Shown: positions 28,611-42,416 of the stretch, one piece after another
Layout: every line of letters starts with the position of its first letter
How positions within the stretch are numbered: position 1 is the stretch's first letter
Assembly (NCBI GenBank): GCA_049515535.1
Contig: JBEKTZ010000015.1
Span: forward strand, 1-64,000
Length of the DNA: 64,000 bases
Source of the DNA: Candidatus Aminicenantales bacterium
GTDB taxonomy: Bacteria > Acidobacteriota > Aminicenantia > Aminicenantales > UBA4085
Reading direction: 5' to 3'
The notes under the pieces: generated by a model
What the model saw: only the letters and a program-made list of their open reading frames with translations
What the model was told of the DNA's origin: nothing
Database searches by the model: none
Program-made: the position numbers and the translations under genes

Positions 28611-30137
28611 ATGTCGCCCATGGCCGGGGGGAAAAAGATTATTGCCGCGTTTTTCATCGCCGCCGTCCTCATCTATTATGGGTGGCTCCTGGGAACGAAT
28701 CTTTGCACCGTGGCGGGAGGCTCGGACAGCTCGGGCTACCTGAATTTCGCCCGGCGGCTGAGGAACGGGCCCCTGGTGGAACCCGTGAAAACCGTGGAGG
28801 CTCTCGGCCTGAGCGAGGAATTCCGTCCGCTCTTTCAGCCGATCGGATTCACGAGGGGCTCCCGGAGCCAGACTATCGCTCCCGCTTATCCCCCGGGACT
28901 GCCCCTGCACATGGCTGCGTTGGCCGCGATTCTCGGCTGGAAAATCGGCCCATTTCTTGTCAGCCCGCTGGCGGCTTTGGCTGGGTTGTTTCTCATCTAT
29001 GGCCTCGCCCGACAATTGGGGCTGTCAAGGCCGCTGTCCTTGGTCGGAGGGTGCGTTTTAGCCGCGTTTCCCGCATATCTGTTCATCGCCGTTCAGCCCC
29101 TGAGCGATGTTCTGGCGAGCTTCTGGGGCATGTTCGCCGTCCTCGCCGCCCTGCTTTCGCGGAAGCGCGCCGGCTGGGCGTGGGCCGCGGGGGCGGCCTT
29201 CGGCCTGGGCGTTCTCGTGCGACCCTCCAACATGTTGATCCTGTTTCCCCTGCTTTGGGCGTTGCCGTCGAAGCCGAAAATCTTCCTGAAATTTTTTTTT
29301 GGCGGCTTTTTTTTCGGCTTCGTCCAATTCTTTTTCAACCGGGTCCTCTATGGAAGCGTGTTCACTACCGGCTATCGAGAGGAGGCGGCCGGCGCGTTCG
29401 CGATTCGGAATTTTCCCACTCTTTTCCTTTTTTTCGGCCGATGGCTCTCCCGCATGTTGACGCCTCTCGTTCCCTTGGCCTGGCCGGCGCTCATTGCCGA
29501 CCGGAACGTGCCGCGCCGGGACAGGCTCCTCCTTGTTTTCTGGTTCGCTCCGTTCCTGATTTTCTACGGCTTGTACCAGCCGTTTGAAAGCTGGACCTTT
29601 GTCCGCTTCTTCCTTCCCGCCCTGCCGGCGCTGATCCTTTCCGCTCTGCTGCTCTTGCGGGACGGCACGAATTATGCCCTCGAGAAAATCCGCGCCGCTC
29701 GATTCCGGGATTCCAAGACGCGGGAGATCCTGGCTTGGATTCCCAGGGTCATGGCCGGTCTGCTTGTCGTCCTGGTCGTTCACGCGGAAATCGGCCAGGT
29801 CAAGAAATTGAAGCTTTTGGATGTCAATGAATTCGAATCCGTTTACGAGCAAAGCTGTCTCGCCGTCAAAGGCCGATTGCCGGAGACGTCGATCCTCGTC
29901 TCCGGGCAATTGAGCGGAGCTCTGACCTTTTACACGCATTTCCCGATCTGCCTTTGGGATTCCCTGCGGCCGCAGTCCTTTTTTCTCCTTCAGCAAAAAG
30001 CGGCGCTCCGCGGCTGGGGCCTCTATGCTCTCCTTTTTCCAAGCGAAGAGAAAGAATTCCAAAACTTCGCGCCCGGTCCGTGGGAGAAAATCGAAAGCTA
30101 TCGCTTCGTCTCCCTTTGGCAATACAAACCGAAATGA
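28611..30137 (+). CDS. GT-C fold membrane glycosyltransferase (PMT/ArnT/GT39-like)
   Basis: GGSDSSGY after TM1, YPPGLP, PLSD, VRP, RFFLP; many TM helices. Confidence 0.75.
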   Translation: MSPMAGGKKIIAAFFIAAVLIYYGWLLGTNLCTVAGGSDSSGYLNFARRLRNGPLVEPVKTVEALGLSEEFRPLFQPIGFTRGSRSQTIAPAYPPGLPLHMAALAAILGWKIGPFLVSPLAALAGLFLIYGLARQLGLSRPLSLVGGCVLAAFPAYLFIAVQPLSDVLASFWGMFAVLAALLSRKRAGWAWAAGAAFGLGVLVRPSNMLILFPLLWALPSKPKIFLKFFFGGFFFGFVQFFFNRVLYGSVFTTGYREEAAGAFAIRNFPTLFLFFGRWLSRMLTPLVPLAWPALIADRNVPRRDRLLLVFWFAPFLIFYGLYQPFESWTFVRFFLPALPALILSALLLLRDGTNYALEKIRAARFRDSKTREILAWIPRVMAGLLVVLVVHAEIGQVKKLKLLDVNEFESVYEQSCLAVKGRLPETSILVSGQLSGALTFYTHFPICLWDSLRPQSFFLLQQKAALRGWGLYALLFPSEEKEFQNFAPGPWEKIESYRFVSLWQYKPK

Positions 30138-32620
30138 AATCTCCGATGGTCCGTCATCCGAAAGTCAAAAAATTCTTGGCGGGATCGGTCGTCTGCATTC
30201 TTTTCGCGGGAGTCACGCTTTTGCAGACCTTCCCGCTTTCCCTCGATCCCGCGCATGCGGTCTATGATCCGGGCGATCCGCTCTTGAATGTCTGGATCCT
30301 GTCCTGGGTCGGCGAGCATCTCGTCCAGGGGCCGTTCCGCCTCTTTGAGGCGAATATTTTCTATCCGTATCACCAAACGCTTGCCTTCTCGGAGCATTTG
30401 CTCCCGCTCAGCGTTCTGTCGGCCCCCGTTTATTTCCTGTCGCGGAATCCCATTCTCCGCTACAACCTCCTCCTCTACCTGACCTTCATCCTCAACGCCC
30501 TGGGGATGTTTTTTCTCGTTAGACATTTGACCCGGAACAAATGGGCGGGCGTCGTCAGCGGTCTTATTTTTTCCTTCAGCGCTTTCAAGATCATGCACAT
30601 CTCGCACCTTCAACTTCTGAGCTCGATGGGTATTCCCTGGTGTTTCCTCTATCTCCATAAATGGATGGCTGAAAAGAAATGGACGAACGCTGCCCTTTTC
30701 TCGTTTTTCTTTTTGCTGCAGGCCCTCAGCTGCGTCTATTATGGGCTCTTCTCGATGGCCATTCTGGTTTTGATCCTTCCCCTCTTTCTCCTTTTCAATA
30801 AGCGGTCGTTCGATCTTCCCTCGCTGGCGAAGCTGGCCGCCCCTCTCGTTCTCGCCGGCGGCATCCTGTATGCCTTCTCCCTTCCCTACCTGCGAGTTTT
30901 TCGCGCGCTCGGCTTGAAACGGGGATTGGCGGCGGGAGCGGAAGTCCAAAACTACCTGGCCGTCCTCCCGACGAATCTCCTTTTCGGCCGGCTCCTGTCC
31001 GGATGGGGCGAGCCTGAGAGATATCTTTTTCCCGGCCTGGCCGCCTGCGTCTTGATGATCGTCGCGATCGCCGGCAGGAGCATGTTTGCGGCCGGGGCCG
31101 ATCGAAGCGGGATTGTCCGGCGTATCGGCAGCGTCGCGAAGATCCTTTTCCTCGCCCTCGTGGCCGCGAACCTCCTGAGCCTTGTCGTCGCCCTGGCGGG
31201 GGGCGTCAGCTTTGCCTGGGGCGGACTCAAGTTTTCGGCGAACCGGGCGGAAAAACCCCTTCTCTTTCTTTTTATCCTTGGCGCTCTCTTTCTTGCCGCC
31301 AAGGTTTTCGAACGCCTCAGGGCCCGGCCAGAAGCGGACCGGAGCGCCTGGATTCTGGGCTATTCAATTCTGGCGTTCTGGGCCGCTCTGCTGTCGTTCG
31401 GCGCCGTTTTCACGCTCTCGGGAAAGACCACGACGGCTTTTCCGATGCCCTTTCCCTGGTTTTTCCGGCATGTGACCGGGTTTGACGGGATCAGGGAGCC
31501 GGCCAGAATCTCCGTTTTCGTGCTTTTCGGCATCAGCGTCCTGGCCGGCTTCGGCTGGGAACGGATCCTGGCCAAAATGACTAAAAAGGCCTGGCGGGGC
31601 GTCTTGACGGGAGCCCTCCTTGTTTTCATCAATCTCGAGTATCTTTCCATTCCCATCGAAGGCATCTCCGTCCCTGTCGGGAAGGATCTCCCGCCCACCT
31701 ACGCATGGCTCAAAGAGCAAAGGAAGGAAGCCGTTGTCCTGGAGCTTCCGTTCGCCGAGTGGATCCCCTGTGAGGCCCTCTATCTTTATTTCTCCACGTA
31801 CCACAAAAAAAGAATCGTCAACGGCTATAGCGGGTTCATCCCGGCTTCGGCCTATTGGCTGAAGGAGACGTTCAGGAAATTCCCCGATCCGGAGAGTCTC
31901 CGTCTTTTGGAAGCCCTCCACGTGGATTTTGTCGTTTTTCACGCGAAGCTGCTCCCCCCGGCGTTCGTTCCCGGCGTCGCGGCGCAAAGCGAATCCCTCA
32001 CCGGCGGAGAGCTCCGTCTGGCCGCGCGTTTTCAATATCCCTTCTCCCGGCCGAACACGTTCAAGGAATTTCTCGGGGACGATCTCGTCTTCTCCGTCCA
32101 TCCGGAACGCGCTTTCCGGAAATCGGGACCGGCCGAGGAGTCGCCGGCCATGGCCGAAATCCCTTCCGACCAATGGCGGATCACGGTCTCTCAAAATCAG
32201 CCGGCGGCTTCTTTGATGACGGACAAGGATCTTGCCTCCGGCTGGACGTCCGAGAAGGCGATCAGGCCCGGTGAATTCATCCAGATCGACCTCGGAAAAG
32301 CCCGTGATGTCCGCAGGGTTTCCATTTTTGGCGGCGCGACCTATTATGATTACGGCCTGGATTTTCAGATGGAAATCTCAGATGACGGGGCTCATTGGCG
32401 GCCCGTCCCATCGCGGTTCTCGAAGGCGGAATTTTGTCTTTCGCTCATCGCGGATCAGGTCCATGCTAATCAAGATCTGTGGCTGGAGGGCGGCCCGGCC
32501 AGATATCTGAAGATCATCCAGACGGGGAAAAGCGAGGCGTTCTCCTGGTCGGTCTCGGAATTGCGGATTTTCGAACGCCTGCCCTCAACCGGACGTCAGG
32601 CCCCAAACGAGGCGCGCTAG
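30134..32620 (+). CDS. GT-C/YfhO-like membrane protein with C-terminal discoidin (F5/8 type C) domain
   Basis: GDPLLNVWIL, EANIFYP, IREPAR, VNGYSG; C-terminal W....IQIDLG...SDDG..W...ARYLKI....WSVSEL; ATG overlaps the upstream stop. Confidence 0.78.
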   Translation: MKSPMVRHPKVKKFLAGSVVCILFAGVTLLQTFPLSLDPAHAVYDPGDPLLNVWILSWVGEHLVQGPFRLFEANIFYPYHQTLAFSEHLLPLSVLSAPVYFLSRNPILRYNLLLYLTFILNALGMFFLVRHLTRNKWAGVVSGLIFSFSAFKIMHISHLQLLSSMGIPWCFLYLHKWMAEKKWTNAALFSFFFLLQALSCVYYGLFSMAILVLILPLFLLFNKRSFDLPSLAKLAAPLVLAGGILYAFSLPYLRVFRALGLKRGLAAGAEVQNYLAVLPTNLLFGRLLSGWGEPERYLFPGLAACVLMIVAIAGRSMFAAGADRSGIVRRIGSVAKILFLALVAANLLSLVVALAGGVSFAWGGLKFSANRAEKPLLFLFILGALFLAAKVFERLRARPEADRSAWILGYSILAFWAALLSFGAVFTLSGKTTTAFPMPFPWFFRHVTGFDGIREPARISVFVLFGISVLAGFGWERILAKMTKKAWRGVLTGALLVFINLEYLSIPIEGISVPVGKDLPPTYAWLKEQRKEAVVLELPFAEWIPCEALYLYFSTYHKKRIVNGYSGFIPASAYWLKETFRKFPDPESLRLLEALHVDFVVFHAKLLPPAFVPGVAAQSESLTGGELRLAARFQYPFSRPNTFKEFLGDDLVFSVHPERAFRKSGPAEESPAMAEIPSDQWRITVSQNQPAASLMTDKDLASGWTSEKAIRPGEFIQIDLGKARDVRRVSIFGGATYYDYGLDFQMEISDDGAHWRPVPSRFSKAEFCLSLIADQVHANQDLWLEGGPARYLKIIQTGKSEAFSWSVSELRIFERLPSTGRQAPNEAR

Positions 32621-32651: not shown

Positions 32652-34040
32652 TCAGCGATTGATGAATTCTGAGACACGATCCCGATTAGCCCAATATCCC
32701 GGCGGTCCCGAAACCGGGTCCGTTGGGATCGGCGTTAATAACGGGGGGAGCGAGGCATCCATCCTCACCCCGCGCCGTCTTTCTTGATGAGGCCGGCTGG
32801 AGGGCGTCACGAGATGAGACACGGCATCGATCGTCGCCCGGCCGAGGCCTCGGCCTCGGGTCGCGGCGCGGATCTCGCCGGTCAGCATGATCACGCCGAC
32901 GATCGCGTAAGCGATCGCCACCGAACGCAGGCTCCATCGTCGCCAGGCCGACTTTTGGCGTTCGGCGACATGAATCGCCAGGAAAGGCAGGACGATGAGA
33001 ATCCGGGTAAACCCCCAGGCCTCGATATAGACGGAATAGCTCAAAAACGGAATGAGGATGGTGAAACCTAGGAACGTATAGTCAGGGGCGGTCCATCGCG
33101 ATTTTTGAGACGCGACGGCCGCCAACCCCACCAGAGAAGCGGCCACCGCGATAAGACCGGCGATTTCCATCGAGGGAGTGCTGACGAAGCCGTAAATGAT
33201 TTCGCCGATTTTTCTCACGACCCCGGAGAAGGGCGAGCTGAAGATCTTTTCGCCCGCCGTAAAGGCCGTTCCCAACCAGATCTGCATATAGACTTTCCAC
33301 GCCAACCATACCGCGATGGGCGCAGCCACGAACGAGATGCTCCGGACAAATTTCTGTTCCCGGAGCTCGGCCGCGGCCAGACCGAGCGCGAGGATCACCG
33401 CGATTTCGCGCGAGAGGACGGCCGCCACGACGAAGCCGAGCGCGGCCCCGAATCGGCCTCGGCGGTGGAACCAAAGGGCGGCGAGGATGAACGCGACTGT
33501 TGCGGCATCCGGCGTCGTGCGGATGAGCGACGCGACCAATCCGCCGCTGAGGATTAAAATCAAGGCCCAGGCCGGACAACGGCCGTCTTCGCTGAGCATC
33601 CGGGCGATGAGGACGATTGCCGCGATCCCGAGAGTCCAGCACAGAAATTGATAGATATAAACGGCCAGATCCGCATTCCCCAGGCTTAGGATCCAGGCGA
33701 GCAACGGAATCATCAAACGGGACCCGCGAAAAGCCGGATTGTCCAGGGCAGCGATCGTGTCGTGGTTTCTCATGAACGGGTCCGTGGCGAGTGCCGCGTA
33801 GAACTGGCCGTCGTAGCCGTCCCGGCTCGTTTTCGGCGCGGTCGCGAGCGCGCTGGGATGCGGCATATCCTTGCCGAGACAGAGAAAGCCGCGAATATCC
33901 CCGGCGTATCGGCCGTCCGCAACAATCAACAACAAATAGCCCCAGCTTAGAAAAGCGGCCGCCAAAACGAACCATGACCGGAATTTGGTCTTCGGCGGCC
34001 CGTCCCGCTTTTCGTTAATCGTCGGTTTAATCCCGCCCAT
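32652..34040 (-). CDS. GT-C-like membrane protein (GYDGQFY; AZOBR_p60025-like glycopolymer formation family)
   Basis: GYDGQFY.ALA.DP, R.SR..IPLLAW, SRE motif, multiple TM helices; TATAAT 9 nt upstream of ATG 34040. Confidence 0.72.
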   Translation of the reverse strand: MGGIKPTINEKRDGPPKTKFRSWFVLAAAFLSWGYLLLIVADGRYAGDIRGFLCLGKDMPHPSALATAPKTSRDGYDGQFYAALATDPFMRNHDTIAALDNPAFRGSRLMIPLLAWILSLGNADLAVYIYQFLCWTLGIAAIVLIARMLSEDGRCPAWALILILSGGLVASLIRTTPDAATVAFILAALWFHRRGRFGAALGFVVAAVLSREIAVILALGLAAAELREQKFVRSISFVAAPIAVWLAWKVYMQIWLGTAFTAGEKIFSSPFSGVVRKIGEIIYGFVSTPSMEIAGLIAVAASLVGLAAVASQKSRWTAPDYTFLGFTILIPFLSYSVYIEAWGFTRILIVLPFLAIHVAERQKSAWRRWSLRSVAIAYAIVGVIMLTGEIRAATRGRGLGRATIDAVSHLVTPSSRPHQERRRGVRMDASLPPLLTPIPTDPVSGPPGYWANRDRVSEFINR

Positions 34041-34197
34041 ATCCGAAGTATTATATCCGATGCTCCGGACAATGGGCAAATTGGGATTGTGTCCCCTTTT
34101 TTCCTGATGGCATAAGGCAGATGCCGGTATCGTTCGAAATTCAATTTCGCGCCGACCCAGGTCCTCTCGGCTTTTCTCGTGCAGGCGGACAAACTCC

Positions 34198-34276
34198 CTC
34201 GGAATTGCGGATTTTCGAACGTCTGCCCTCAAACGGACATCCGGCTCCAAACGAGGCGCGCTAGCCCGTCCTCGCC
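34198..34276 (+). repeat. 79-bp direct repeat, copy B
   Basis: Intergenic duplicate of 32554-32632 with 6 mismatches. Confidence 0.9.
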
Positions 34277-34422
34277 AGCCATCCTCCGGTCTCTTCAAGG
34301 GAGATACGGACTTCTCCGTGACCTTGGCCCGTTTCTTGAGATCATTCTCCCGCCATGCCGGGAATCTGTCGCCCTCGCCATCCGGAACGCACGGTTCTCT
34401 ATCGGACGCATCAGGTTCTCTC

Positions 34423-34491
34423 GAGTGTGGCGGCTCGATGAAGATCGTCGCCTTTATCACAGACCACGAGGCAGTCGAAAAGTAAATTCTT
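34423..34491 (+). pseudogene. Remnant of an IS91/ISCR-like transposase C-terminus
   Basis: Translates ECGGSMKIVAFITDHEAVEK*IL, resembling the C..CGG.M.I.AFIT....I..IL end of IS91-family transposases. Confidence 0.6.
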
Positions 34492-34536
34492 ATAACCCCA
34501 GCCGCCGTTTCCAAATTGTGCCCGCCGAAAAATCGA

Positions 34537-34565
34537 TTGACGCATGGATTTTCGGGACGTATAAT
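34537..34565 (+). promoter_or_regulatory. Near-consensus sigma70 promoter for the Cys-rich operon
   Basis: TTGACG-N17-TATAAT; GGAGGAGGTG RBS before ATG 34613. Confidence 0.75.
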
Positions 34566-34612
34566 CTAACCATAATCGAGGGGCCTTCCCCGGTTCAGGG
34601 AGGAGGTGCTTT

Positions 34613-35662
34613 ATGGCTCGGATCATCCGTCACAAAGAGGTTCTTGGGGCTTTCACCGTCCTCGTCGTTTTCGCCCTTCTGTTTCTCTGGGGCCAGAGTT
34701 CTGCCGCTAAAACCAGTCCGGCGGCGGCCGATTCCGCGGCCCTCTCGGCCGCACGCGTCGATGCCGCCACGATGCCGGCCGCTCCGCCGGCCATGACCTA
34801 TCGCGCCGGAACGCCGCCGAAGTACACCGAATCGGTCTGGGATTTCCTCAGCTATCAGACCTACACGATGGGCGTTTATCTGAGCAACGTCGAAACGTCG
34901 AAGCTGACGACGACGCAGATCACGACCATCACCCGCGACTTCGGCGCCTGGTTGAAGAGAGCCTTCCCCAACGCCAACCGCGACTACCGGGCTCTCTGCC
35001 TGGTCAAATATCCGAACTCGGTCAAAGCCCTGCAAACGCCCAAGGGCACCGCGGAGTCGATCATGAAGGCCGGGTATTTTTCCGAGGCGATCATCACCTT
35101 TGGCCGGAATTTCTCCAACTCGGCCAACTATCAGAAGACGATCAACGGCTTCTACCAGGACTACCTGAAGCGGCCGGAGAAAAATCGTCCCGTTCCGCAG
35201 GCCCAGTTCGTCGGTATCCTGGAGGGTTACGGCAAGTGGATCTCGGCCCTCGATGATTGCGTGACGATCAACACCGCCGGGGCCCGGGGCGCCGGCGGGA
35301 ACCAGGTCGCGGCCGCCCAGAGCTGCGGCGTCTGTGTCGGGCCGATCATCATATCCGCGAACAACATGAGCTGCGGCGTCTGCGTCATCACCCTCTCCGG
35401 GGCCGGCGCGGCCAGCTGCGCCCAGCAGACCTGCGGCGGCGGCATCACCTGCGGCAACAACGCTTCGACCTGCGGGGCCACCTGCGGACAAGCCGCGACC
35501 TGTCTGGGCGTGACCTGCGGCGGCGGAACGTGTCTCGGCGTTTCGTGTTCTTCTAACACCTGCGGCGTGGCCCTGACCTGCGGCTCGGGCGTCGCCACTT
35601 GCGGTGCGGCCACGTGCGCGGGCGCCAGTTCGTGCGCCCTTGTATGTGACGTAAAACGGTGA
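34613..35662 (+). CDS. Exported protein with C-terminal [S/T]C-repeat Cys-rich tail
   Basis: Signal peptide-like N-terminus; 11 TC and 5 SC dipeptides in the last ~115 aa; strong RBS and promoter. Confidence 0.85.
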   Translation: MARIIRHKEVLGAFTVLVVFALLFLWGQSSAAKTSPAAADSAALSAARVDAATMPAAPPAMTYRAGTPPKYTESVWDFLSYQTYTMGVYLSNVETSKLTTTQITTITRDFGAWLKRAFPNANRDYRALCLVKYPNSVKALQTPKGTAESIMKAGYFSEAIITFGRNFSNSANYQKTINGFYQDYLKRPEKNRPVPQAQFVGILEGYGKWISALDDCVTINTAGARGAGGNQVAAAQSCGVCVGPIIISANNMSCGVCVITLSGAGAASCAQQTCGGGITCGNNASTCGATCGQAATCLGVTCGGGTCLGVSCSSNTCGVALTCGSGVATCGAATCAGASSCALVCDVKR

Positions 35663-35674
35663 CGGTTATCCGTA

Positions 35675-38077
35675 ATGCCGGCTGACTCCAGGCGAAGCCG
35701 GCGGGTCGTCCTTTTCGCGTCGGGGTTCGTTCTTCTCGGCCTGATCGCCGGATGGGTCACTCCGCTCGAGATGCCGTCCCTCCGGGCCGCCGCGTTGACC
35801 CTCGGCTTGGGGATCGTCCTCACGGGCGGCTCAAACCGGAAGGGGAGCGCCGTGCTCACGATCGCCGCTCTCGCCGCCTGCTTACTAATCTTTTTCGCCG
35901 CGACACCCGTCCAGGCTCTGTTTTGCCTGGCCGCGGCGACGGCCGTGTCTTTTCCGTGGCCGGGCGCATTCGCCCGCGGCTTGCGGACCGCGCTCCTCGG
36001 CGCCGGAGGCGTTCTCCTGCTTTATCATATGTCGCCGGCTATCGCTGCGGCGTTGAACAACGCGGCCGCCTCGCTGACGAAAGCCTTATCGCCCGGGGGC
36101 GGACTGATCCTGGGCTGGAACGAAAGCGGGTTGTTCGCCATGGGCGCGGCCATGGCCGCCGTGCTGTCGGCCGCGGGTTTCCGGCGCGGACGGATCATCC
36201 GCGCCCTCGCCGCGGCGGCCGGATTTGCCGTCGCCTGGATCGTCCTGGTCAACCTTCGTGCTCATTTTCCTGAAGGGAACTTCACGTCTTCCCTTGTCTG
36301 GCAGCTCGGATGGCTGGAGTTCCTCGGTCTGGCGAGCGGATGGGCCGTCAGCCTCGTTTCCTGCGGATCGTCCGCTCTTCCCACTCGCGCACGCTCGGTC
36401 CGGATCATCCTCGCCGCCGGTCTCACCGCGATTTTCTGCTTGGTCATCTGGTTCGGACTCCGCCCCGGCGCCGGCCTTGGACACCCGCTCAAGATCGGCC
36501 TCTGGCAGGGCAAGTTCATCGGCACCTGGGAGATGCCGAGCTGGGAAAGGCCGGGTGTCGAGCTCACGTCGGCCCACTTCGGAATGCTGCCATCGTATTT
36601 GAAGGCTCTCGGCTGGAAAATCGAGACCTTCGGTCCCGATCTCTCGTCCGACCGCCTCGCCGGCCTCGACGCGGTCTTGGTCATCAACCCGCTCGAGCTC
36701 TCGGACGGGACCGTGTCGGCCTTCCGCGATTTCGTCTCGCGCGGCGGCGGACTTCTCGTCGCCGGCGACCATACGAACATGTTCGGCCTCCGAGCTCCCG
36801 TCAACCGCCTTCTCGCCGGCACCGGGATCTCCCTGGGCGATGATACGGTCATACCGGCCCGCGAAACCTGGCCGGGGTCGCTCGATATCGTCGGAGACCG
36901 CTGGTGGACGGCCGGGGTGTCCGAGACCTTCCTCGGATATGGCGTCGGTGCTTCGCTCGATGTCCGCCGGCCCGGACGTCCGCTCCTCATTGGCCGGGCC
37001 GCTTTCGCGGACGGGCCCAACCCCGATGATCCCTCCGGGAACCACATCGGCGATTACACGCAGCGTCCGGGAGAACCGATCGGCGGATTGACCCTGGTCG
37101 CTTGGGCGCCCGTGGGGCGCGGGCGACTCGTCGCCTGCGGCGACACGTCGATCTTCCAGAGCCTGAGCCTGAGGACCAGTCATTCGTTCGTCCGGCATCT
37201 CGTCGAATTCGCCGCGGCTGGAGCTTTGTCAGGCGGTCCAGCTGGACGCGTTTCCCCCTGGGGCTTACTCTATCCGGCGCTCCTGGGCGTGTTCGGTCTT
37301 TTGGCGCTCTTCCTTGCTGGCGGGATCGGCCCGCTCGCTCGTGCCCTCGTTCCGCTCGCCTTCGCCGCCGTGATCGCGACCGCGTCGTTCTCCGCGCGCG
37401 CCGAGGTCGAAAGGTTTAATGCCGTCCCGGGCTCGCGGGTCGCGGCGGTGGACCTCTCCCACGCCAATGCCTTCGATCCCCGCGGTGCGACCGACGACAG
37501 CGTGGACGGCCTCTACCTCAATCTCATGCGGGCGGGGTATCTTCCCGTTAACGCCCCGCGCGGACTGGCCGGGTTCGCCGGCGGCGCCGGGGTGGAGGCG
37601 GCCATCGTGATTGCTCCGACACGCCCCCTCGGCCCGGCCGAACGCGACGCCCTGCTCGACCTCGCCGACAAAGGCGGCCTGGCCCTGATCGCGGCCGGGG
37701 CGCGTGAGGAGCCGTTCACGCGCGACCTGCTCGCGGCGGCCGGGCTTAAACTTCGCCCGGTCGCTCTGGGCCCCGTGCCGTACCTCGATTCCTCGACCCC
37801 GGGTCCCTGGACGAACCAGCCCCGGTTCAGCGACACCTGGCCTCTCGAGATCGACCCGGCGGGCCCTGCCCGCTCCCTCTACGGCGTGGAGCTCGGCGGA
37901 CGCGGCTGGGACATCATCGCCGAGGCGCCTCGCGGCCGCGGCCGGATCCTCGTGATCGCCGACCCGCGCTTTTTCTGCGATATGAACCTCGAAGCCATCG
38001 GGACGTACTGGAAGCCGAACATCGATCTGTTGCGGCAGCTCCTGGGCGGGAACACGGATGGAAAAGACGAACATTAG
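35675..38077 (+). CDS. Multi-pass membrane protein with two class I GATase-like (DUF4350-like) domains
   Basis: N-terminal TM bundle; DAVLVINP...FVSRGGGLLVAGDHT...GRGRLVACGD; TM pair; VDLSH...GRGRILVIAD. Confidence 0.78.
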   Translation: MPADSRRSRRVVLFASGFVLLGLIAGWVTPLEMPSLRAAALTLGLGIVLTGGSNRKGSAVLTIAALAACLLIFFAATPVQALFCLAAATAVSFPWPGAFARGLRTALLGAGGVLLLYHMSPAIAAALNNAAASLTKALSPGGGLILGWNESGLFAMGAAMAAVLSAAGFRRGRIIRALAAAAGFAVAWIVLVNLRAHFPEGNFTSSLVWQLGWLEFLGLASGWAVSLVSCGSSALPTRARSVRIILAAGLTAIFCLVIWFGLRPGAGLGHPLKIGLWQGKFIGTWEMPSWERPGVELTSAHFGMLPSYLKALGWKIETFGPDLSSDRLAGLDAVLVINPLELSDGTVSAFRDFVSRGGGLLVAGDHTNMFGLRAPVNRLLAGTGISLGDDTVIPARETWPGSLDIVGDRWWTAGVSETFLGYGVGASLDVRRPGRPLLIGRAAFADGPNPDDPSGNHIGDYTQRPGEPIGGLTLVAWAPVGRGRLVACGDTSIFQSLSLRTSHSFVRHLVEFAAAGALSGGPAGRVSPWGLLYPALLGVFGLLALFLAGGIGPLARALVPLAFAAVIATASFSARAEVERFNAVPGSRVAAVDLSHANAFDPRGATDDSVDGLYLNLMRAGYLPVNAPRGLAGFAGGAGVEAAIVIAPTRPLGPAERDALLDLADKGGLALIAAGAREEPFTRDLLAAAGLKLRPVALGPVPYLDSSTPGPWTNQPRFSDTWPLEIDPAGPARSLYGVELGGRGWDIIAEAPRGRGRILVIADPRFFCDMNLEAIGTYWKPNIDLLRQLLGGNTDGKDEH

Positions 38078-40496
38078 CTGGCTCCTCCTCGGGGCCGCGA
38101 TGATCTGGTCCGAAGGGACCTTCGGCTGGCGGAGTGCCGCCGGCAGCGCGGCGCTGATCGCCGTTGCCGTAGCCTGGCTCTGGAAGTCTGGCGCTCTCTC
38201 AGCGGCGGGCGTTTCGGCCGCGCGGCCCGCGTATGCGCTTCGCGTTCTTTCCGCGGCCGCGCTGCTGGGCCTGGCTGTCTGGATGGGCGGCGCTTACATT
38301 TATCTCTCCGCCCTCGTCGCGCTGGCTCTCGTTCTCGACCGCGGAGCCGCGCCCCAGGTCCGCCGCTTGATGGATGCCGTTCTCGCCGCGGCCTGGTTCA
38401 TCGGCCTCATGACGCTTGTCCGGGCCGTCGTCGGGGCCCGCCTTCATGACCTGCCCGCGGCGACGCCCATTCTTGCCGCCGTCGTGCGCGCCCTCGGCTT
38501 CAACGCCTCGTTCCAGGGATATATCGTTCACGTCCAGCAATCGCATCAGGTTCTCTCCGTCGCAGTCAGCTGGCCGCTTCTCGGCGGATGGGCGATCCTC
38601 GCCCTCGTCGTCGGCCCGATCGTTCTATTCTTTACGGGCTCGATCAAGCCGCGCCTTGGTCAGATTCTCAAATTCGCCGCGGCGCTCGTTGCCGGCGCCC
38701 TGATCCGCCTCGTGCTGATCGTCGTCTTCCTCACGGAAGCGCCTTCCCGGGTGACGGTCCTCTTCCATCCGCTCGTCCAGCTCGCGACGATCCTTCCCAT
38801 TCTTCTTGCGCTTCGCGGCTGGGAGAGGCGGGAGACGGCCCGCTCATTCCGCGCGGCCGCCCTCTTCCGCGTCGGTCTATTTGCCCTTGCCGGGATCGGC
38901 CTTGGGATGGCTCTGTTCTGGATGCCGGCCGGATCGGTCAAAGCCGGCCGCCTGATGATCGACGAGACGCATTCGAACTGGGAACTCTCGACCGAGAAGA
39001 TGGACACCCATTGGTATGGGCGGTACTCGACTTACAGCTTCTGGACGCTGGCCCGCTGGCTCGATCATTTCTACGAAGTGAGGACCCTGACATCCGGCCG
39101 TCTCGACGCGGCCGCTCTCGCCGCCGGCGATGTTCTCATGCTCAAGTGCCCGACCCGCGCCTATGAGCCCGCTGAGGTCGCGGCCGTGCTGGATTTCGTC
39201 CGGGGAGGCGGGGGAGTCCTGATGGTCGGCGACCACACCGACGTCTTTTCCATGAACACCTACCTGAACCAGATCGCCGGGCCCCTCGGCCTGCATTTCA
39301 ATTATGACGCGACCTATGATTTTCTGACCGGCGCGCTTTCGAATTTCCAACCGCCCCGTGGCGGGCGCCATCCGATCGTCCGCGGCGTCGATGAGTTCGA
39401 TTTTATGACCAGCTGCACCCTGTCCCTGGGCCGGAACGCGCGGCCGGTCATCGTCGGGCCGGGGCTCATCGTCGGCCAGGCCGATTACTCGACCCAGAAT
39501 TTTTTCGACCGGCCGAGCCCGTTCATCAAGGCGGGGAGCCTCCCGGGGGCGTTCGTCCAATCGGCCGCCGGCGAATACGGCCGCGGCCGGTTCTTCGCCT
39601 GGACGGACAGCACGTGCTGGTCGAACTTCTCCGTCTTGATGGACGGCAACCCAGCCCTCATCCAGGGCGTGATGGCGTTTCTGAACCATCGCGCCGCTCC
39701 GATCGATGGACGGGTCGCGGGGTTGATCGTGATGACGCTGGCCGCGGTGATCCTGGCGGCTCTACGGAAAAAAGGGGGCCGCCCTATGCGGGATGTCGCG
39801 ACGACCGCGTTCCTGGCCGGCGTTATGGCCACGGCCCTTCTTGCGTCCGTTCTGCACGCGCGGATTTATCGGCCGCCAGCACCGCGGACTGAGATGACCC
39901 GGGTCGCCTTCGACCTGGCCCACGGCGATTTTATCCTCCGGCCCGCTTCGGGAATGTCCGTGGACATCAACCGGAGCGACCGGAAACTTCTCGACCTATC
40001 CACTTTCTATGTCTGGAGTCAGCGCCTCGACCTTTTCCCGAATGAGGCCCTCGGCTGGAGCGAACTCGAACAAGCCTCCATGGTCGTTCTGCCGCTGCCC
40101 GGCCGCAACTTGAGCGAAAAGGACGCCAAGCGGCTTCTCGCCTGGGTGCGCGGCGGAGGCCGGCTCCTTGTCCTGGCCGACGCCCAACACGAATCATCGC
40201 GGGCGCATCTCCTTCTCAACCCGGCCGGACTCGCTGCCATACCCGGGATCGCTTATACGGGCTACGGCACGCCCGTCCTGACGATTCAGGGAGGCGAGGT
40301 TCTCTGGAAAGACGACCGCGGCCGCGTCGTCGCCGCGCGCGCACGGCTGGGAAAGGGGATGATCGTGGCCTGCGGTGTCGCCCGCACCTTCGGCGCGGCG
40401 GTCATAGGCGGGGTGTTCACCGAACCGGATGCCGACCGTGAACGCGTTTACGAATTCGAGTATACTCTCCTCCGTGCCTGCCTCGAACTCAAATGA
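38058..40496 (+). CDS. Paralogous membrane protein with exosortase-like TM region and two GATase-like (DUF4350-like) domains
   Basis: IDETH...DVLMLKCP...FVRGGGGVLMVGDHT...GRGRFFAWTD; FDLAH...GKGMIV; overlaps the upstream ORF by 20 bp. Confidence 0.78.
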   Translation: MEKTNISWLLLGAAMIWSEGTFGWRSAAGSAALIAVAVAWLWKSGALSAAGVSAARPAYALRVLSAAALLGLAVWMGGAYIYLSALVALALVLDRGAAPQVRRLMDAVLAAAWFIGLMTLVRAVVGARLHDLPAATPILAAVVRALGFNASFQGYIVHVQQSHQVLSVAVSWPLLGGWAILALVVGPIVLFFTGSIKPRLGQILKFAAALVAGALIRLVLIVVFLTEAPSRVTVLFHPLVQLATILPILLALRGWERRETARSFRAAALFRVGLFALAGIGLGMALFWMPAGSVKAGRLMIDETHSNWELSTEKMDTHWYGRYSTYSFWTLARWLDHFYEVRTLTSGRLDAAALAAGDVLMLKCPTRAYEPAEVAAVLDFVRGGGGVLMVGDHTDVFSMNTYLNQIAGPLGLHFNYDATYDFLTGALSNFQPPRGGRHPIVRGVDEFDFMTSCTLSLGRNARPVIVGPGLIVGQADYSTQNFFDRPSPFIKAGSLPGAFVQSAAGEYGRGRFFAWTDSTCWSNFSVLMDGNPALIQGVMAFLNHRAAPIDGRVAGLIVMTLAAVILAALRKKGGRPMRDVATTAFLAGVMATALLASVLHARIYRPPAPRTEMTRVAFDLAHGDFILRPASGMSVDINRSDRKLLDLSTFYVWSQRLDLFPNEALGWSELEQASMVVLPLPGRNLSEKDAKRLLAWVRGGGRLLVLADAQHESSRAHLLLNPAGLAAIPGIAYTGYGTPVLTIQGGEVLWKDDRGRVVAARARLGKGMIVACGVARTFGAAVIGGVFTEPDADRERVYEFEYTLLRACLELK

Positions 40497-40517: not shown

Positions 40518-41231
40518 TTATTTCTTTATCCTATATCCCGCTTTCTTTATGCAAGCCCGCGCGGCGATTTGCATCGGCTCAATGAGAGGGACGGAGAGGT
40601 CCGATTCCCGCAGGACGAGCGGGACCTCGGTGCATCCCGCGATGACGGCTTGGGCGCCGCGGCCGATGAGCCGGCGGGCGGCCCGGACAATCATGGTCCG
40701 CGGGCGTCCCGACGCGAATCCCGCTTTGATGCCGCAGTCGCCGAGGATGGCTTCCATGACCGCCTTTTGTTCGCGCTCATCGGGCGTCAGGATCTCGATC
40801 TTTTTTTTCCCGAAGACGTCATGCCAGAGCCGGGATTCCACTGTTCCCGTGGTGGCGATGAGTCCCGCTTTCTTGAGGCCGGGGATGTTGACGGCGGCGT
40901 AGCGCAAGGCCTCATCGAGAAGGTTGACGAACGGCACGTTCGACCGGGTTTCGATTTTCGAAGCCCAGTAATGGGCCGTGATGCAGGGCATGACGATCAG
41001 CTCCGCCCCTCCCTTTTCCAGGATCTTCACGCCTTCGAGGAGCGAGGGGAGCGGGCTGCGGCGGCCGTCGAGGATGGCGTCCGTCCGCGGCGGGATTTTT
41101 GGGTTGTTCCAGACCAAGACTCGAATGTGCTCCTGGTCCGAGAGGGCGTCCGTGTTTTTTATGATCAGGCCGAAAAAATAAGCCGTCGCTTCGGGCCCCA
41201 TCCCCCCGAGGACGCCGATCGTCTTCTTCAT
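40518..41231 (-). CDS. Aspartate/glutamate racemase
   Basis: IGVLGGMGPEAT, IPPRT, PCITAH, GCTEVP. Confidence 0.93.
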   Translation of the reverse strand: MKKTIGVLGGMGPEATAYFFGLIIKNTDALSDQEHIRVLVWNNPKIPPRTDAILDGRRSPLPSLLEGVKILEKGGAELIVMPCITAHYWASKIETRSNVPFVNLLDEALRYAAVNIPGLKKAGLIATTGTVESRLWHDVFGKKKIEILTPDEREQKAVMEAILGDCGIKAGFASGRPRTMIVRAARRLIGRGAQAVIAGCTEVPLVLRESDLSVPLIEPMQIAARACIKKAGYRIKK

Positions 41232-41276
41232 GATTTCCTCTCCGGTAAAAAATAGGGCAATAGGTATCGTGTTTCC

Positions 41277-42416
41277 CTATTTGATGAATTCTTTGATTTT
41301 GTCCAAAGGCAGGGCCGCGACGACGCGGCCGTTCTTCCCCTCCATCCGCTGAGCTTTGAACAGCGAGTTGAGAATAGCCTCCTCCGTCGCTTCGGCCGCG
41401 GCCAGAAAAAGAGTGGACAGGTTATCGTTCCGAAGGACGGTTATCGTCTGCGTCGGCGAAGCCGAACGGTACGGGACTCGGACCTCCTTGGCCGTCGAGA
41501 AAGCGACGGCGTAGTCGCCGCTCCCATTGGCGTTGGTTCCGCCCGTCCGGGCGATCCCGAGAAGAGCGCGCTTGGCGAGTCGCTTCAAGTTGCGGCTGTC
41601 GAGAGGCGCGTCGGTCGCGACGACGATCATGCACGAGCCTTCGACCGGCGGATCGTCGCGCCATCGGGGATCTTCTTCCGGGCTTCCCGGCGTGATTTTC
41701 AATTTATCGCCGAGGGGAATCCCGGCGATCCGGAGGAGGCCTCCGTGGTTGGTCTGGACCAGAACGCCGACGGTATAACCGCCCCGCGCGGCCAGGAGCT
41801 TTCTTGAGGCGGTCCCGATCCCCCCCTTGAAGCCGTAACATTCCGTCCCCGTCCCAGCGCCGACCGCGCCTTCTTCGACAGGGCCGGAACGGGCGGTCCG
41901 GATGGCCGCGAGCACGTGTTCTTTCGTCACGTGCCGGCCGCGGATGTCGTTCAGACCGCCGTCGTTGGTCTCGCCGACGACGGGGTTGACCGAGGCGATG
42001 TTCTCGTTTTCAGGAAGCCCCAGGATGTAGTCGATGACGGCTTCGGCGGCCGTGGGCACGCTCAGCGTGTTGGTCAGAACGATCGGCGTTTCGAGATTGC
42101 CGAGCTCGTCGATCTGGGTCGAGCCCGTGAGTTTTCCGAACCCGTTGGCGACATCGACGGCGGCCGGGACCTTGTCCTGGAAGATGTTGCCTTCGTGAGG
42201 CAGGATCGCGGTGACTCGCGTTCGGACGTCCCGGCCTTCGATGAGCGTCACCTGGCCGACGCCCACACCCGCCACGTCGGTGATGGCGTTAAGCGGTCCC
42301 GGTTCAAGGACGCCGATCTTGATGCCGAACTCCCTGAGGCGCGGCCGGTCTTCCGGCGCGAAACGGACGCCGCCCGCGAGAAAAAAAAGAAGCGCGCAGA
42401 AAGCAAAAGATTTCAT
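41277..42416 (-). CDS. DmpA-type aminopeptidase (peptidase S58/P1 family), exported
   Basis: NAITDV.GV.VG, NGFGK..G, GETNDG.LND, GAGTG, G-S autocleavage site EGSCMIVVATDAPL, GSGD. Confidence 0.92.
   Translation of the reverse strand: MKSFAFCALLFFLAGGVRFAPEDRPRLREFGIKIGVLEPGPLNAITDVAGVGVGQVTLIEGRDVRTRVTAILPHEGNIFQDKVPAAVDVANGFGKLTGSTQIDELGNLETPIVLTNTLSVPTAAEAVIDYILGLPENENIASVNPVVGETNDGGLNDIRGRHVTKEHVLAAIRTARSGPVEEGAVGAGTGTECYGFKGGIGTASRKLLAARGGYTVGVLVQTNHGGLLRIAGIPLGDKLKITPGSPEEDPRWRDDPPVEGSCMIVVATDAPLDSRNLKRLAKRALLGIARTGGTNANGSGDYAVAFSTAKEVRVPYRSASPTQTITVLRNDNLSTLFLAAAEATEEAILNSLFKAQRMEGKNGRVVAALPLDKIKEFIK

Follow-up and report, generated by a model that had tools for sequence, protein, structure and literature searches.

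In the exosortase/PEP-CTERM, archaeosortase/PGF-CTERM and rhombosortase/GlyGly-CTERM systems, one polytopic membrane machine serves many client proteins, which carry a short motif beside a transmembrane (TM) segment. Operons for ribosomally synthesized and post-translationally modified peptides (RiPPs) encode tandem precursors in which a conserved leading segment is joined to a variable remainder rich in Cys, Ser and Thr, and GldG is thought to play an accessory role for the GldA/GldF ATP-binding cassette (ABC) transporter. Here, we describe a three-gene block (g1, g2 and g3) from Candidatus Aminicenantales bacterium (Acidobacteriota; Aminicenantia; Aminicenantales; UBA4085), which lies in a stretch of 64,000 nucleotides (GenBank assembly GCA_049515535.1, contig JBEKTZ010000015.1, positions 1 to 64,000 of the forward strand) that we refer to as the window. 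Based on the list of open reading frames (ORFs) and hydropathy, g1 (34613..35662, + strand) encodes an exported protein of 349 aa, composed of a signal anchor, a diverged form of a short sequence tag, a 190-aa domain and a tail of [ST]C repeats. The other two genes, g2 (35675..38077, +; ORF list, Pfam and alignment) and g3 (38058..40496, +; ORF list, Pfam and an AlphaFold2 (AF2) model), encode polytopic membrane proteins of 800 and 812 aa, which represent two paralog groups, termed g2-type and g3-type. Another protein with a comparable outer domain has been placed on genomic grounds in a predicted archaeal secretion or remodeling complex, where the single-pass protein arCOG01314 (DUF4350) accompanies genes for a MoxR-type ATPase and vWA proteins, according to Makarova and co-workers (PMC5898192).

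We consider it reasonably probable, though far from certain, that the block belongs to a widespread system made up of a g2/g3 pair and tagged client proteins, in which the pair docks the tag at the outer face of the membrane and then acts on the client. Searches with the window proteins as queries returned 5, 3 and 6 close homologs of g3, g2 and g1, respectively. An alignment-based scan gave 85 relatives from 126 candidate stretches in species-representative genomes and at least 312 from 596 in metagenomes, of which 80 each were kept; the set of 162 loci used below includes two pieces of the window itself, and its ORFs were called mechanically, with some starts over-extended. In 138 of the 162 loci, a g2-type gene is followed directly by a g3-type gene on the same strand. 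The other 24 loci have one of the two genes, and 22 of them have less than 700 nt of upstream DNA, so that the contig ends there. Pairing is thus the rule and not the rarity that would have told against the preliminary description of this DNA. The records of the genome loci point to Thermoplasmatota, Desulfobacterota, Planctomycetota, Acidobacteriota, Armatimonadota, Ignavibacteriota, Bacillota and other groups. When 1.84 billion cluster representatives were searched with a profile, the number of matches was 5839 at a threshold of E ≤ 1e-3 and fell to 2737 at E ≤ 1e-10 and to 1216 at E ≤ 1e-30, the last being clusters at 50% identity. The order of all three genes is also kept in a locus (L084) whose g3 is 73% identical to that of the window. 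These observations support the view that the trio is a unit which recurs across taxa, and, judged by gene linkage, g2 and g3 very likely form a heterodimer in the cytoplasmic membrane. We lean toward regarding the two as ancient paralogs.

The secreted proteins encoded beside the pair are mutually unrelated in sequence, and what they have in common is a signal anchor, a spacer of about ten residues and the motif S-P-L-[FY]-x-x-R, which we call the tag. The 111 unique sequences were aligned by the search motif SP[LAIVM][FY], which fixes S and P by construction. Of these sequences, 99 have L at the third position, 76 have F and 35 have Y at the fourth, and 68 have R at +6. The spacer from the end of the TM segment to the tag has a median length of 10 residues (interquartile range 8.5–11, n = 103). 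Of 2532 ORFs located no more than 2.5 kb from a pair, 98 have an anchor followed by SPL[FY], compared with 5 of 2452 more distant ORFs of these loci and 2 of 15638 ORFs in the window's own genome, all counted with a pattern that had been defined on these very loci. Since the spacer is constant, the tag would lie at the outer membrane surface, and it is for this reason that we propose docking on the pair. The preliminary description had characterized the partner protein by its Cys-rich tail. The feature that the partners actually share is the tag, and the balance of the evidence tilts slightly toward clients being recognized by this short N-proximal sequence and not by their overall sequence or a Cys tail.

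Clients per locus were counted in the 75 loci in which the pair has 1.5 kb or more of DNA on each side (well-flanked loci). Among these, 52 have a tagged ORF, 32 have a secreted Cys-rich ORF and 61 have either. The corresponding numbers are 17, 1 and 17 for the 21 archaeal-titled loci, 17, 16 and 22 for the 28 bacterial-titled loci, and 18, 15 and 22 for the 26 metagenome loci. The preliminary description had asked whether homologs of both membrane proteins occur as a pair next to a TC-rich ORF. As far as the pairing is concerned, this was borne out; the Cys-rich neighbor was often found in the bacterial and metagenome loci and hardly ever in the archaeal ones. Within the archaeal-titled loci, 25 of 26 tagged ORFs are located downstream of the pair.

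Clients range from 100 to 1200 aa, are membrane-anchored, and can occur as tandem paralogs (for example, three each in loci L015, L018 and L032). The non-archaeal clients (n = 47) have a median Cys content of 6.0%, and 89% of them contain at least 3% Cys, vs 16% of background ORFs. Their Cys residues are preceded by S or T in 783 of 1302 cases, as against 715 of 4341 in background ORFs. The densest examples have 139 Cys in 1192 aa (L138), 99 in 785 aa (L145) and 45 in 336 aa (L077). Archaeal clients that adjoin the pair have 2–3 Cys each, and 137 of the 175 Cys of archaeal clients (n = 47) fall in the last 30% of the length. When 12 clients were compared with Pfam and NCBIfam, nothing was found except a GEVED domain in two of them. 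In some bacterial clients this domain (PF20009) follows the Cys repeats (L117:258-2111 and L110:3736-5253).

Whole genomes were also searched with the tag alignment (A6). The 2.3-Mb Thermoplasmatales chromosome G061 combines a single pair with 40 tag matches (E ≤ 1e-10), of which three are beside the pair, and the 1.9-Mb genome G063 has one pair and 16 tag matches, again with three beside it. A Phycisphaerales chromosome has two pairs, and its sole two strong tag matches adjoin one of them. We inspected 30 tag-motif ORFs from 20 regions of G061, and all but one start with an anchor and the tag, the exception being a 130-aa minus-strand ORF (in L172) that is a chance match. In most of these ORFs the tag is followed by a helical segment and a terminal second hydrophobic stretch with 4–8 Cys; in the dispersed G061 clients (n = 24), 106 of 129 Cys lie in the last 30% of the length. 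The 40 members in G061 (loci L163-L182) form a family of tagged proteins of about 200 aa, many of them in small tandem arrays. Four of the G061 matches contain internal stop codons and are therefore probably decaying copies.

In the window, the block starts with a sigma-70-like promoter, TTGACG-17-TATAAT (34537..34565, +), that matches the consensus at 11 of 12 positions; sites of this quality occur twice in the 7.5-kb region, vs 0.8 expected from shuffles. A Shine-Dalgarno sequence, GGGAGGAGG (34598..34606, +), is located 6 nt ahead of the g1 ATG. The gap between g1 and g2 is 12 nt, the end of g2 overlaps the start of g3 by 20 nt, the upstream neighbor of the trio is divergent and the downstream neighbor convergent. 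The GC content of the block is 0.661, compared with a genome mean of 0.569 (standard deviation 0.039 in 3298 windows of the same size), and 0.03% of such windows are equally GC-rich. The self-contained three-gene block, its near-consensus promoter and ribosome-binding site, the overlap of g2 and g3, and the high GC content had all been reported in the preliminary description and were confirmed here. Its further claim, that the block is bounded by repeats, was not: we saw no bounding repeats or mobile-element ends of note around the trio, the best block-spanning repeat being a 26-nt direct pair of 73% identity (34591/40282), with inverted pairs comparably weak. A GC-rich hairpin followed by a weak T-run lies inside the last g1 codons (35614-35639, +). 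Read-through into g2 and g3 could drop at this point, which might yield more client than machine.

A g3-type gene is present in none of the 60 closest relatives of the window's genome and in 5 of 301 sampled genomes of its phylum, counting the window's genome and the unpublished G217. In one of these five, G316 of the same class, the gene after the pair encodes a client of 158 aa that has 16 Cys and a canonical tag. Given this patchy spread and the extreme GC content, the block appears to have been acquired horizontally. Two further studies include peat metagenome runs with near-identical DNA (X2 and X3, with 0.72 and 0.67 of sampled words, respectively).

The g1 protein has a basic N-terminus and, by hydropathy, a hydrophobic segment at aa 9-27 that would serve as signal anchor or signal peptide (34637..34693, +). 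Of its 21 Cys, 19 are within the last 114 aa (aa 236-349; 35318..35659, +), in agreement with the exported, Cys-tailed protein that had been described, and 16 of these are preceded by S or T. By comparison, shuffled tails contain [ST]C 4.0 times on average (standard deviation 1.6), and the observed 16 was reached in 0 of 10000 shuffles. The Cys are spaced 3–13 residues apart in the tail and 4–7 across the C-terminal repeats, and the protein ends in ...CDVKR with no C-terminal TM segment. No Pfam or NCBIfam family matches g1, and the ESM Atlas gave no usable feature match, every structural row having a TM-score below 0.36. Among 15638 ORFs of the genome, g1 is the sole one with at least six [ST]C in 120 aa, and it has no paralog.

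The two homologs P0010 and P0011, which are 48% and 43% identical to g1, carry the canonical tag. Their cluster records list contigs of 11557 and 11044, the same sizes as those listed for g3-type and g2-type homologs. When aligned with the S-P-L-Y-G-E-R of P0011, g1 has A42-A43-L44-S45-A46-A47-R48 (34736..34756, +) as the equivalent of the tag. The same decayed tag is seen in P0006 (98% identical to g1) and P0007 (88%), with Ala replacing S41 just ahead. Among the loci, phmmer relatives of g1 were confined to L084 and to copies of the window itself, namely the window piece L002 and the 100% identical contig L083. We are inclined to view g1 as a diverged client, the only one in its genome, whose tag has decayed to Leu and Arg. 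In the tail (35318-35659), the close relatives P0006-P0009 differ from the window protein by indels of whole units, P0007 being 27 aa shorter, so that the repeat region appears to grow and shrink fast.

Both g2 and g3 match DUF4350 (PF14258) in two stretches each, with 49.6 and 54.1 bits, respectively (gathering cut-off 30.4). They have a common architecture and both contain the motif FV..GGG.L..GDHT(N/D).F, as had been noted previously; in our reading, about nine TM helices at the N-terminus and two outward-facing GATase1-like domains are common to the two proteins. In g2, sequence comparisons place a TM region at about aa 1-262, a DUF4350/GldG-like stretch at 315-392, TM segments at about 530-575 and a second DUF4350 stretch at 642-774. 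For g3, we built an AF2 model from a 105-sequence alignment (A2), which has a predicted local distance difference test (pLDDT) score of 91.4 and a predicted template modeling (pTM) score of 0.93; it supersedes an unusable model from five sequences (pLDDT 51). Alignment A2 was made from 114 g3-type ORFs, reduced to 101 by dropping those outside 780-900 aa or at contig edges, the duplicate L083 and near-duplicates, to which the window g3, P0003, P0004 and P0005 were added. The same filter reduced the g2-type set (A3) from 94 to 88, plus the window g2 and P0013.

In the g3 model, the N-terminal membrane domain (aa 1-287; 38058..38918, +), delimited from AF2 secondary structure, counts of K and R in loops, and conservation, has about nine TM helices, an outward-facing small beta-sheet (aa 149-169) and a near-invariant H130 (in R128-L-H130-D131). 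It is followed by a first GIFT/class I glutamine amidotransferase (GATase1)-like domain (aa 295-545; 38940..39692, +; conservation and fold search), a TM hairpin (aa 551-603; 39708..39866, +; AF2 and K/R counts) with a K/R-rich cytoplasmic turn at aa 570-579, and a second GATase1-like domain (aa 614-812; 39897..40493, +; AF2 and fold search). From the K/R-rich loops at 193-206, 253-263 and 570-579 and the order of helices in the model, the positive-inside rule predicts that g3 has its N-terminus inside and both large domains outside, consistent with the extracytoplasmic location envisaged in the preliminary description.

The modeled domain 1 of g3 is most similar to the N-terminal domain of IFT52 (Z 23.0, root-mean-square deviation 2.4, 207 residues aligned). 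Further matches are site-1 protease (with its C-terminal domain, Z 19.4), OST48 (Z 18.9) and proteins of ThuA type (Z 16). In Pfam, g3 matches IFT52_GIFT (PF23355) with 28.2 bits, marginally over the cut-off of 27.2. As modeled, domain 1 is a GIFT/class I amidotransferase-like fold. Domain 2 resembles trimerization domains of GH42 type (Z about 12) and matches the IFT52 profile (E 1.9e-8). These fold matches (IFT52, OST48, ThuA-like) make the "GATase-like" half of the earlier label "exosortase-like/GATase-like" correct. The exosortase half found no support: the exosortase profile did not match full-length g2 or g3 at E ≤ 0.1, nor any of 30 N-terminal domains (15 g3-type and 15 g2-type) at E ≤ 1, a test made with sequence profiles, the fold-search lists being occupied by GIFT domain matches that barely cover residues 1-290. 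NCBIfam has no family for g2 or g3, and all that the ESM Atlas gave for g3 was unnamed DUF4350 clusters. A complex prediction with the g3-type homolog P0003 (A4) and the first 100 residues of the client homolog P0011 (A5) yielded no answer (score 0.00, mark 0.32) and carries no weight either way.

In the g3-type alignment, where the mean column identity is 27%, 20 columns are invariant and another 52 nearly so. The invariant polar motifs are IDExH (D302, E303, H305), GDHT (D392, H393, T394), TSC (S452, C453), and R511 with DSTC (D517, S518, T519). Most invariant polar residues, K363 included, are in domain 1, where C453 is near-invariant. R217 and H130 of the membrane domain are also nearly invariant, and the latter lies on the outer side beside the small sheet. 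According to the AF2 model, IDExH, GDHT and R511/DSTC directly follow the beta-strands 298-302, 386-390 and 510-515, respectively. They would thus lie at the C-terminal edge of the parallel sheet, which is the place of catalytic residues in class I amidotransferases and related peptidases. The g2-type proteins have fewer conserved residues, with 11 invariant columns that include GDHT and GDTS. Two substitutions of g3, N327S and G398S (nt 39036-39038 and 39249-39251), are common to the window and L084, and only 4 of the 105 sequences deviate at each site. Both of these lineages have the decayed tag, and two of the other deviants, L151 and L161, belong to a clade with "xTxCPxx" heptad clients. 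This association may reflect co-variation or shared ancestry; the deviating sequences are not independent.

Based on gene linkage and these features, we propose that the pair binds its clients and then acts on them. The tag would sit near features that g3 exposes, namely the R-x-H-[DE] loop, the small beta-sheet and, in the first GIFT domain, the conserved cleft. In a first step, the client tag would dock on the g2/g3 pair, with g2 as the less conserved partner subunit. In a second step, the most likely action would be a hydrolytic or group-transfer reaction in the g3 cleft, which might remove the anchor, modify the Cys cluster, or join or assemble clients. We give roughly equal weight to cleavage and to Cys-directed chemistry, and somewhat less to pure scaffolding.

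Scaffolding is the essence of the alternative that fares best, in which the pair would be a GldG-like platform without catalytic activity, assisting export or surface assembly as an accessory or scaffold that holds or passes the client without modifying it. We regard this as unlikely, but it deserves serious consideration. The ABC_transp_aux family (PF09822), which includes GldG, matches g3 with 37.0 bits and g2 with 32.4 bits (cut-off 34.7), the top structural matches of domain 1, IFT52 and OST48, are GIFT domains that are not known to be enzymatic, and 1 of the 30 N-terminal domains has a weak ABC2_membrane_5 match (E 0.0062). However, the PF09822 match covers about 90 of 288 profile positions, and the GldG equivalog TIGR03521 scores 12.9 bits on g3 against a cut-off of 389.85, with no match on g2. 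The full-length match to GldG that would have undone the preliminary description was thus absent. In addition, ABC ATPase signatures (Walker A plus LSGGQ) were found in just 3 of 935 neighbor ORFs from 154 loci, and 20 invariant columns, mostly polar or Gly, at 27% identity exceed the usual conservation of a scaffold.

A second alternative, which we judge improbable, is leader-guided Cys chemistry. Here, the tag would act like a RiPP leader, and the pair would add cross-links (a disulfide ladder or thioether), lipid or another group outside the cell. The conserved N-terminal tag followed by a hypervariable remainder rich in Cys, Ser and Thr, the tandem paralogs in L015, L018 and L032, the presence of Cys clusters in bacterial as well as archaeal clients, and the near-invariant C453 of g3 all fit such a scheme. 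Nevertheless, in agreement with the preliminary description, radical SAM, LanB/C/M and YcaO had no Pfam match among the three trio proteins, nor among the flanking genes. Across the loci, too, LanB/C/M and YcaO genes were missing and no radical SAM gene recurred, radical SAM/SPASM genes being restricted to 5 loci and the other strand. Furthermore, membrane-anchored clients of up to 1200 aa are unlike RiPP precursors, and the pair-adjacent archaeal clients contain no more than 2–3 Cys. The five radical SAM/SPASM genes lie beyond the pair, 3–4 genes farther downstream and on the strand opposite to it (L146:10013-12076 (-) and four similar metagenome loci), in a clade with very Cys-rich clients that start with "WSPLY".

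Less probable still is that the client forms an extracellular, metallothionein-like matrix that binds metal or sulfide, and that the pair loads or handles the metal. The extreme Cys density, as in L138, would suit this role, as would the recurrence of the window's DNA in peat runs and the fact that, by their records, the loci are largely metagenome-assembled genomes of sediment type; against it, the pair shows no resemblance to metal transporters in Pfam, NCBIfam or the scans of N-terminal domains, and archaeal clients beside the pair have few Cys. Finally, although its degenerate tag is missed by the tag model, it is most improbable that g1 is an unrelated neighbor that came to lie beside the pair by accident, given the single promoter, the 12-nt gap and 20-nt overlap within the trio, the gene order retained in L084, the canonical tags of g1 homologs, the uniqueness of its [ST]C content among the ORFs of the genome and the linkage counts across loci.

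Several observations weigh against the reading that we prefer, namely that the pair docks tagged clients and acts on them. The canonical S-P-L-[FY] is missing from g1, which has A-A-L-S in its place and retains just L44 and R48, and the hidden Markov model of the tag scores no match on it. In L140 and L147, upstream DNA is present and contains no g2-type ORF, and 14 of the 75 well-flanked loci have no client under the definitions used. Since the tag pattern was defined on the same loci, the enrichment near the pair is no independent test. A tag model built from archaeal sequences only transfers weakly, with 4 of 2542 ORFs of bacterial loci reaching 10 bits, vs 0 of 15638 in the window's own genome. 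In 81 genomes of the class to which G061 belongs, the pair is present in 14 and the tag in 13 (both in 12, pair only in 2, tag only in 1 and neither in 66), but these genomes are related to one another and the tag model leans to that clade. With regard to catalysis, the invariant residues of g3 would cluster in space as judged from the strand-loop topology of the model, and we know of no GIFT domain with a solved structure (IFT52, OST48) that acts as an enzyme.

A bolder version of the same idea is that the pair is a pan-prokaryotic sorting or maturation machine of a novel type, a GIFT heterodimer that reads the N-proximal tag, itself a mirror image of the C-terminal signals of sortases and exosortases, and enzymatically processes or assembles Cys-cluster surface proteins, with about 40 clients per 2.3-Mb genome in some Thermoplasmatales. 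We put this forward tentatively, as something short of probable. We found no description of the pair, tag or clients in the full-text literature, a search whose coverage excludes subscription journals and supplements, and Pfam, NCBIfam and the ESM Atlas give the proteins of the system no name beyond DUF4350; the earlier statement that no described pathway of this composition was known agrees with the literature searched. If the docking reading is true, it would provide a role for a large unnamed family (1216 clusters at E ≤ 1e-30) and for the tagged membrane proteins, of which one archaeal genome has as many as 40 copies. The reading would reveal a new tag-and-machine logic at the cell surface that is common to archaea and bacteria, and would tie the GIFT domain, which is found in intraflagellar transport and oligosaccharyltransferase, to a testable prokaryotic function. 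The clients, with up to 139 Cys in simple repeats of 5–7 residues, may form unusual fibers or redox- or metal-active surfaces in anoxic habitats, and the tag would be a simple handle for finding every client in a genome.

Some neighboring genes should also be mentioned. Creatininase, M24 peptidase, deoxyhypusine synthase and Sua5 are other recurrent neighbors of the pair and look like lineage synteny. In 26 archaeal loci, the strand that carries the pair also encodes, 2–5 genes farther downstream, a secreted protein of 350-390 aa (L015:12688-13773, L090:2608-3786 and 24 more). This protein has no Pfam family and no sequence relative in the PDB (best E 0.26). Its motif pair "HAGYW ... ATC(D/H)A" could be a His/Cys dyad, and the protein may be a fourth archaeal component. 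In the window, the gene divergent from the trio (32652-34514, -) encodes a membrane protein of the AZOBR_p60025 family ("cell surface glycopolymer formation"; 151.3 bits, cut-off 150), with the match beginning at residue 178. Roughly the first 150 codons of this ORF seem to be spurious, and a start near 34040 would suit a promoter-like site at 34079-34050. The protein is possibly a glycosyltransferase of GT-C type and is not recurrent in related loci. Next to it, an 888-aa multi-TM protein (29954-32620, +) with a C-terminal F5/8 type C (discoidin) domain and no other family may be a second envelope glycopolymer enzyme. On the other side, and convergent with the trio, adjacent genes for an Asp/Glu racemase and a peptidase of family S58 (DmpA-type) (40518-42416, -) resemble D-amino-acid peptide metabolism and have no relation to the trio finding.

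How does the system compare with those already described? Like GldG (PF09822) of the GldAFG gliding-motility ABC transporter, the pair has an outward GIFT/GATase1-like domain between TM segments, reflected in the partial profile match of about 90 residues. It differs from GldG in that each chain combines a 9-TM domain at the N-terminus with two GIFT-like domains, that the two paralogs are obligate partners and that there are tagged clients; it scores far under the TIGR03521 cut-off, and there are no genes for an ABC ATPase or permease (gldA, gldF) in the window block. The closest folds to g3 domain 1 are the N-terminal GIFT domain of IFT52 and the OST48/Wbp1 subunit of oligosaccharyltransferase (Foldseek E 1.8e-7), but these proteins come from eukaryotes, serve other complexes as soluble or single-pass subunits and are 14–16% identical to g3; the motifs IDExH, GDHT, TSC and DSTC were defined on the g3-type alignment. 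The arCOG01314 complex resembles the present system in having a DUF4350/GldG-like extracellular domain in a membrane protein and a role in surface proteins predicted from genomics only, whereas no pair, 9-TM domain or tagged clients form part of that description (PMC5898192).

As in RiPP operons, the clients of the pair have a conserved start, a variable remainder rich in Cys, Ser and Thr, and tandem paralogs. They differ in being whole, membrane-anchored proteins for which extracytoplasmic processing is proposed, and known maturase families were not found. Compared with exosortase-type systems, there is no sequence relation, the tag is N-terminal and follows the anchor, and the machine is a pair of paralogs with large outer domains. 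In keeping with this, g1 does not have the layout of exosortase clients (a C-terminal motif, TM segment and basic tail), and the signal common to the clients is N-terminal. Nonetheless, the machine and client logic is the same as in the exosortase-type systems, with clients that are found both adjacent to the pair and dispersed around the genome, as are the 40 in G061.

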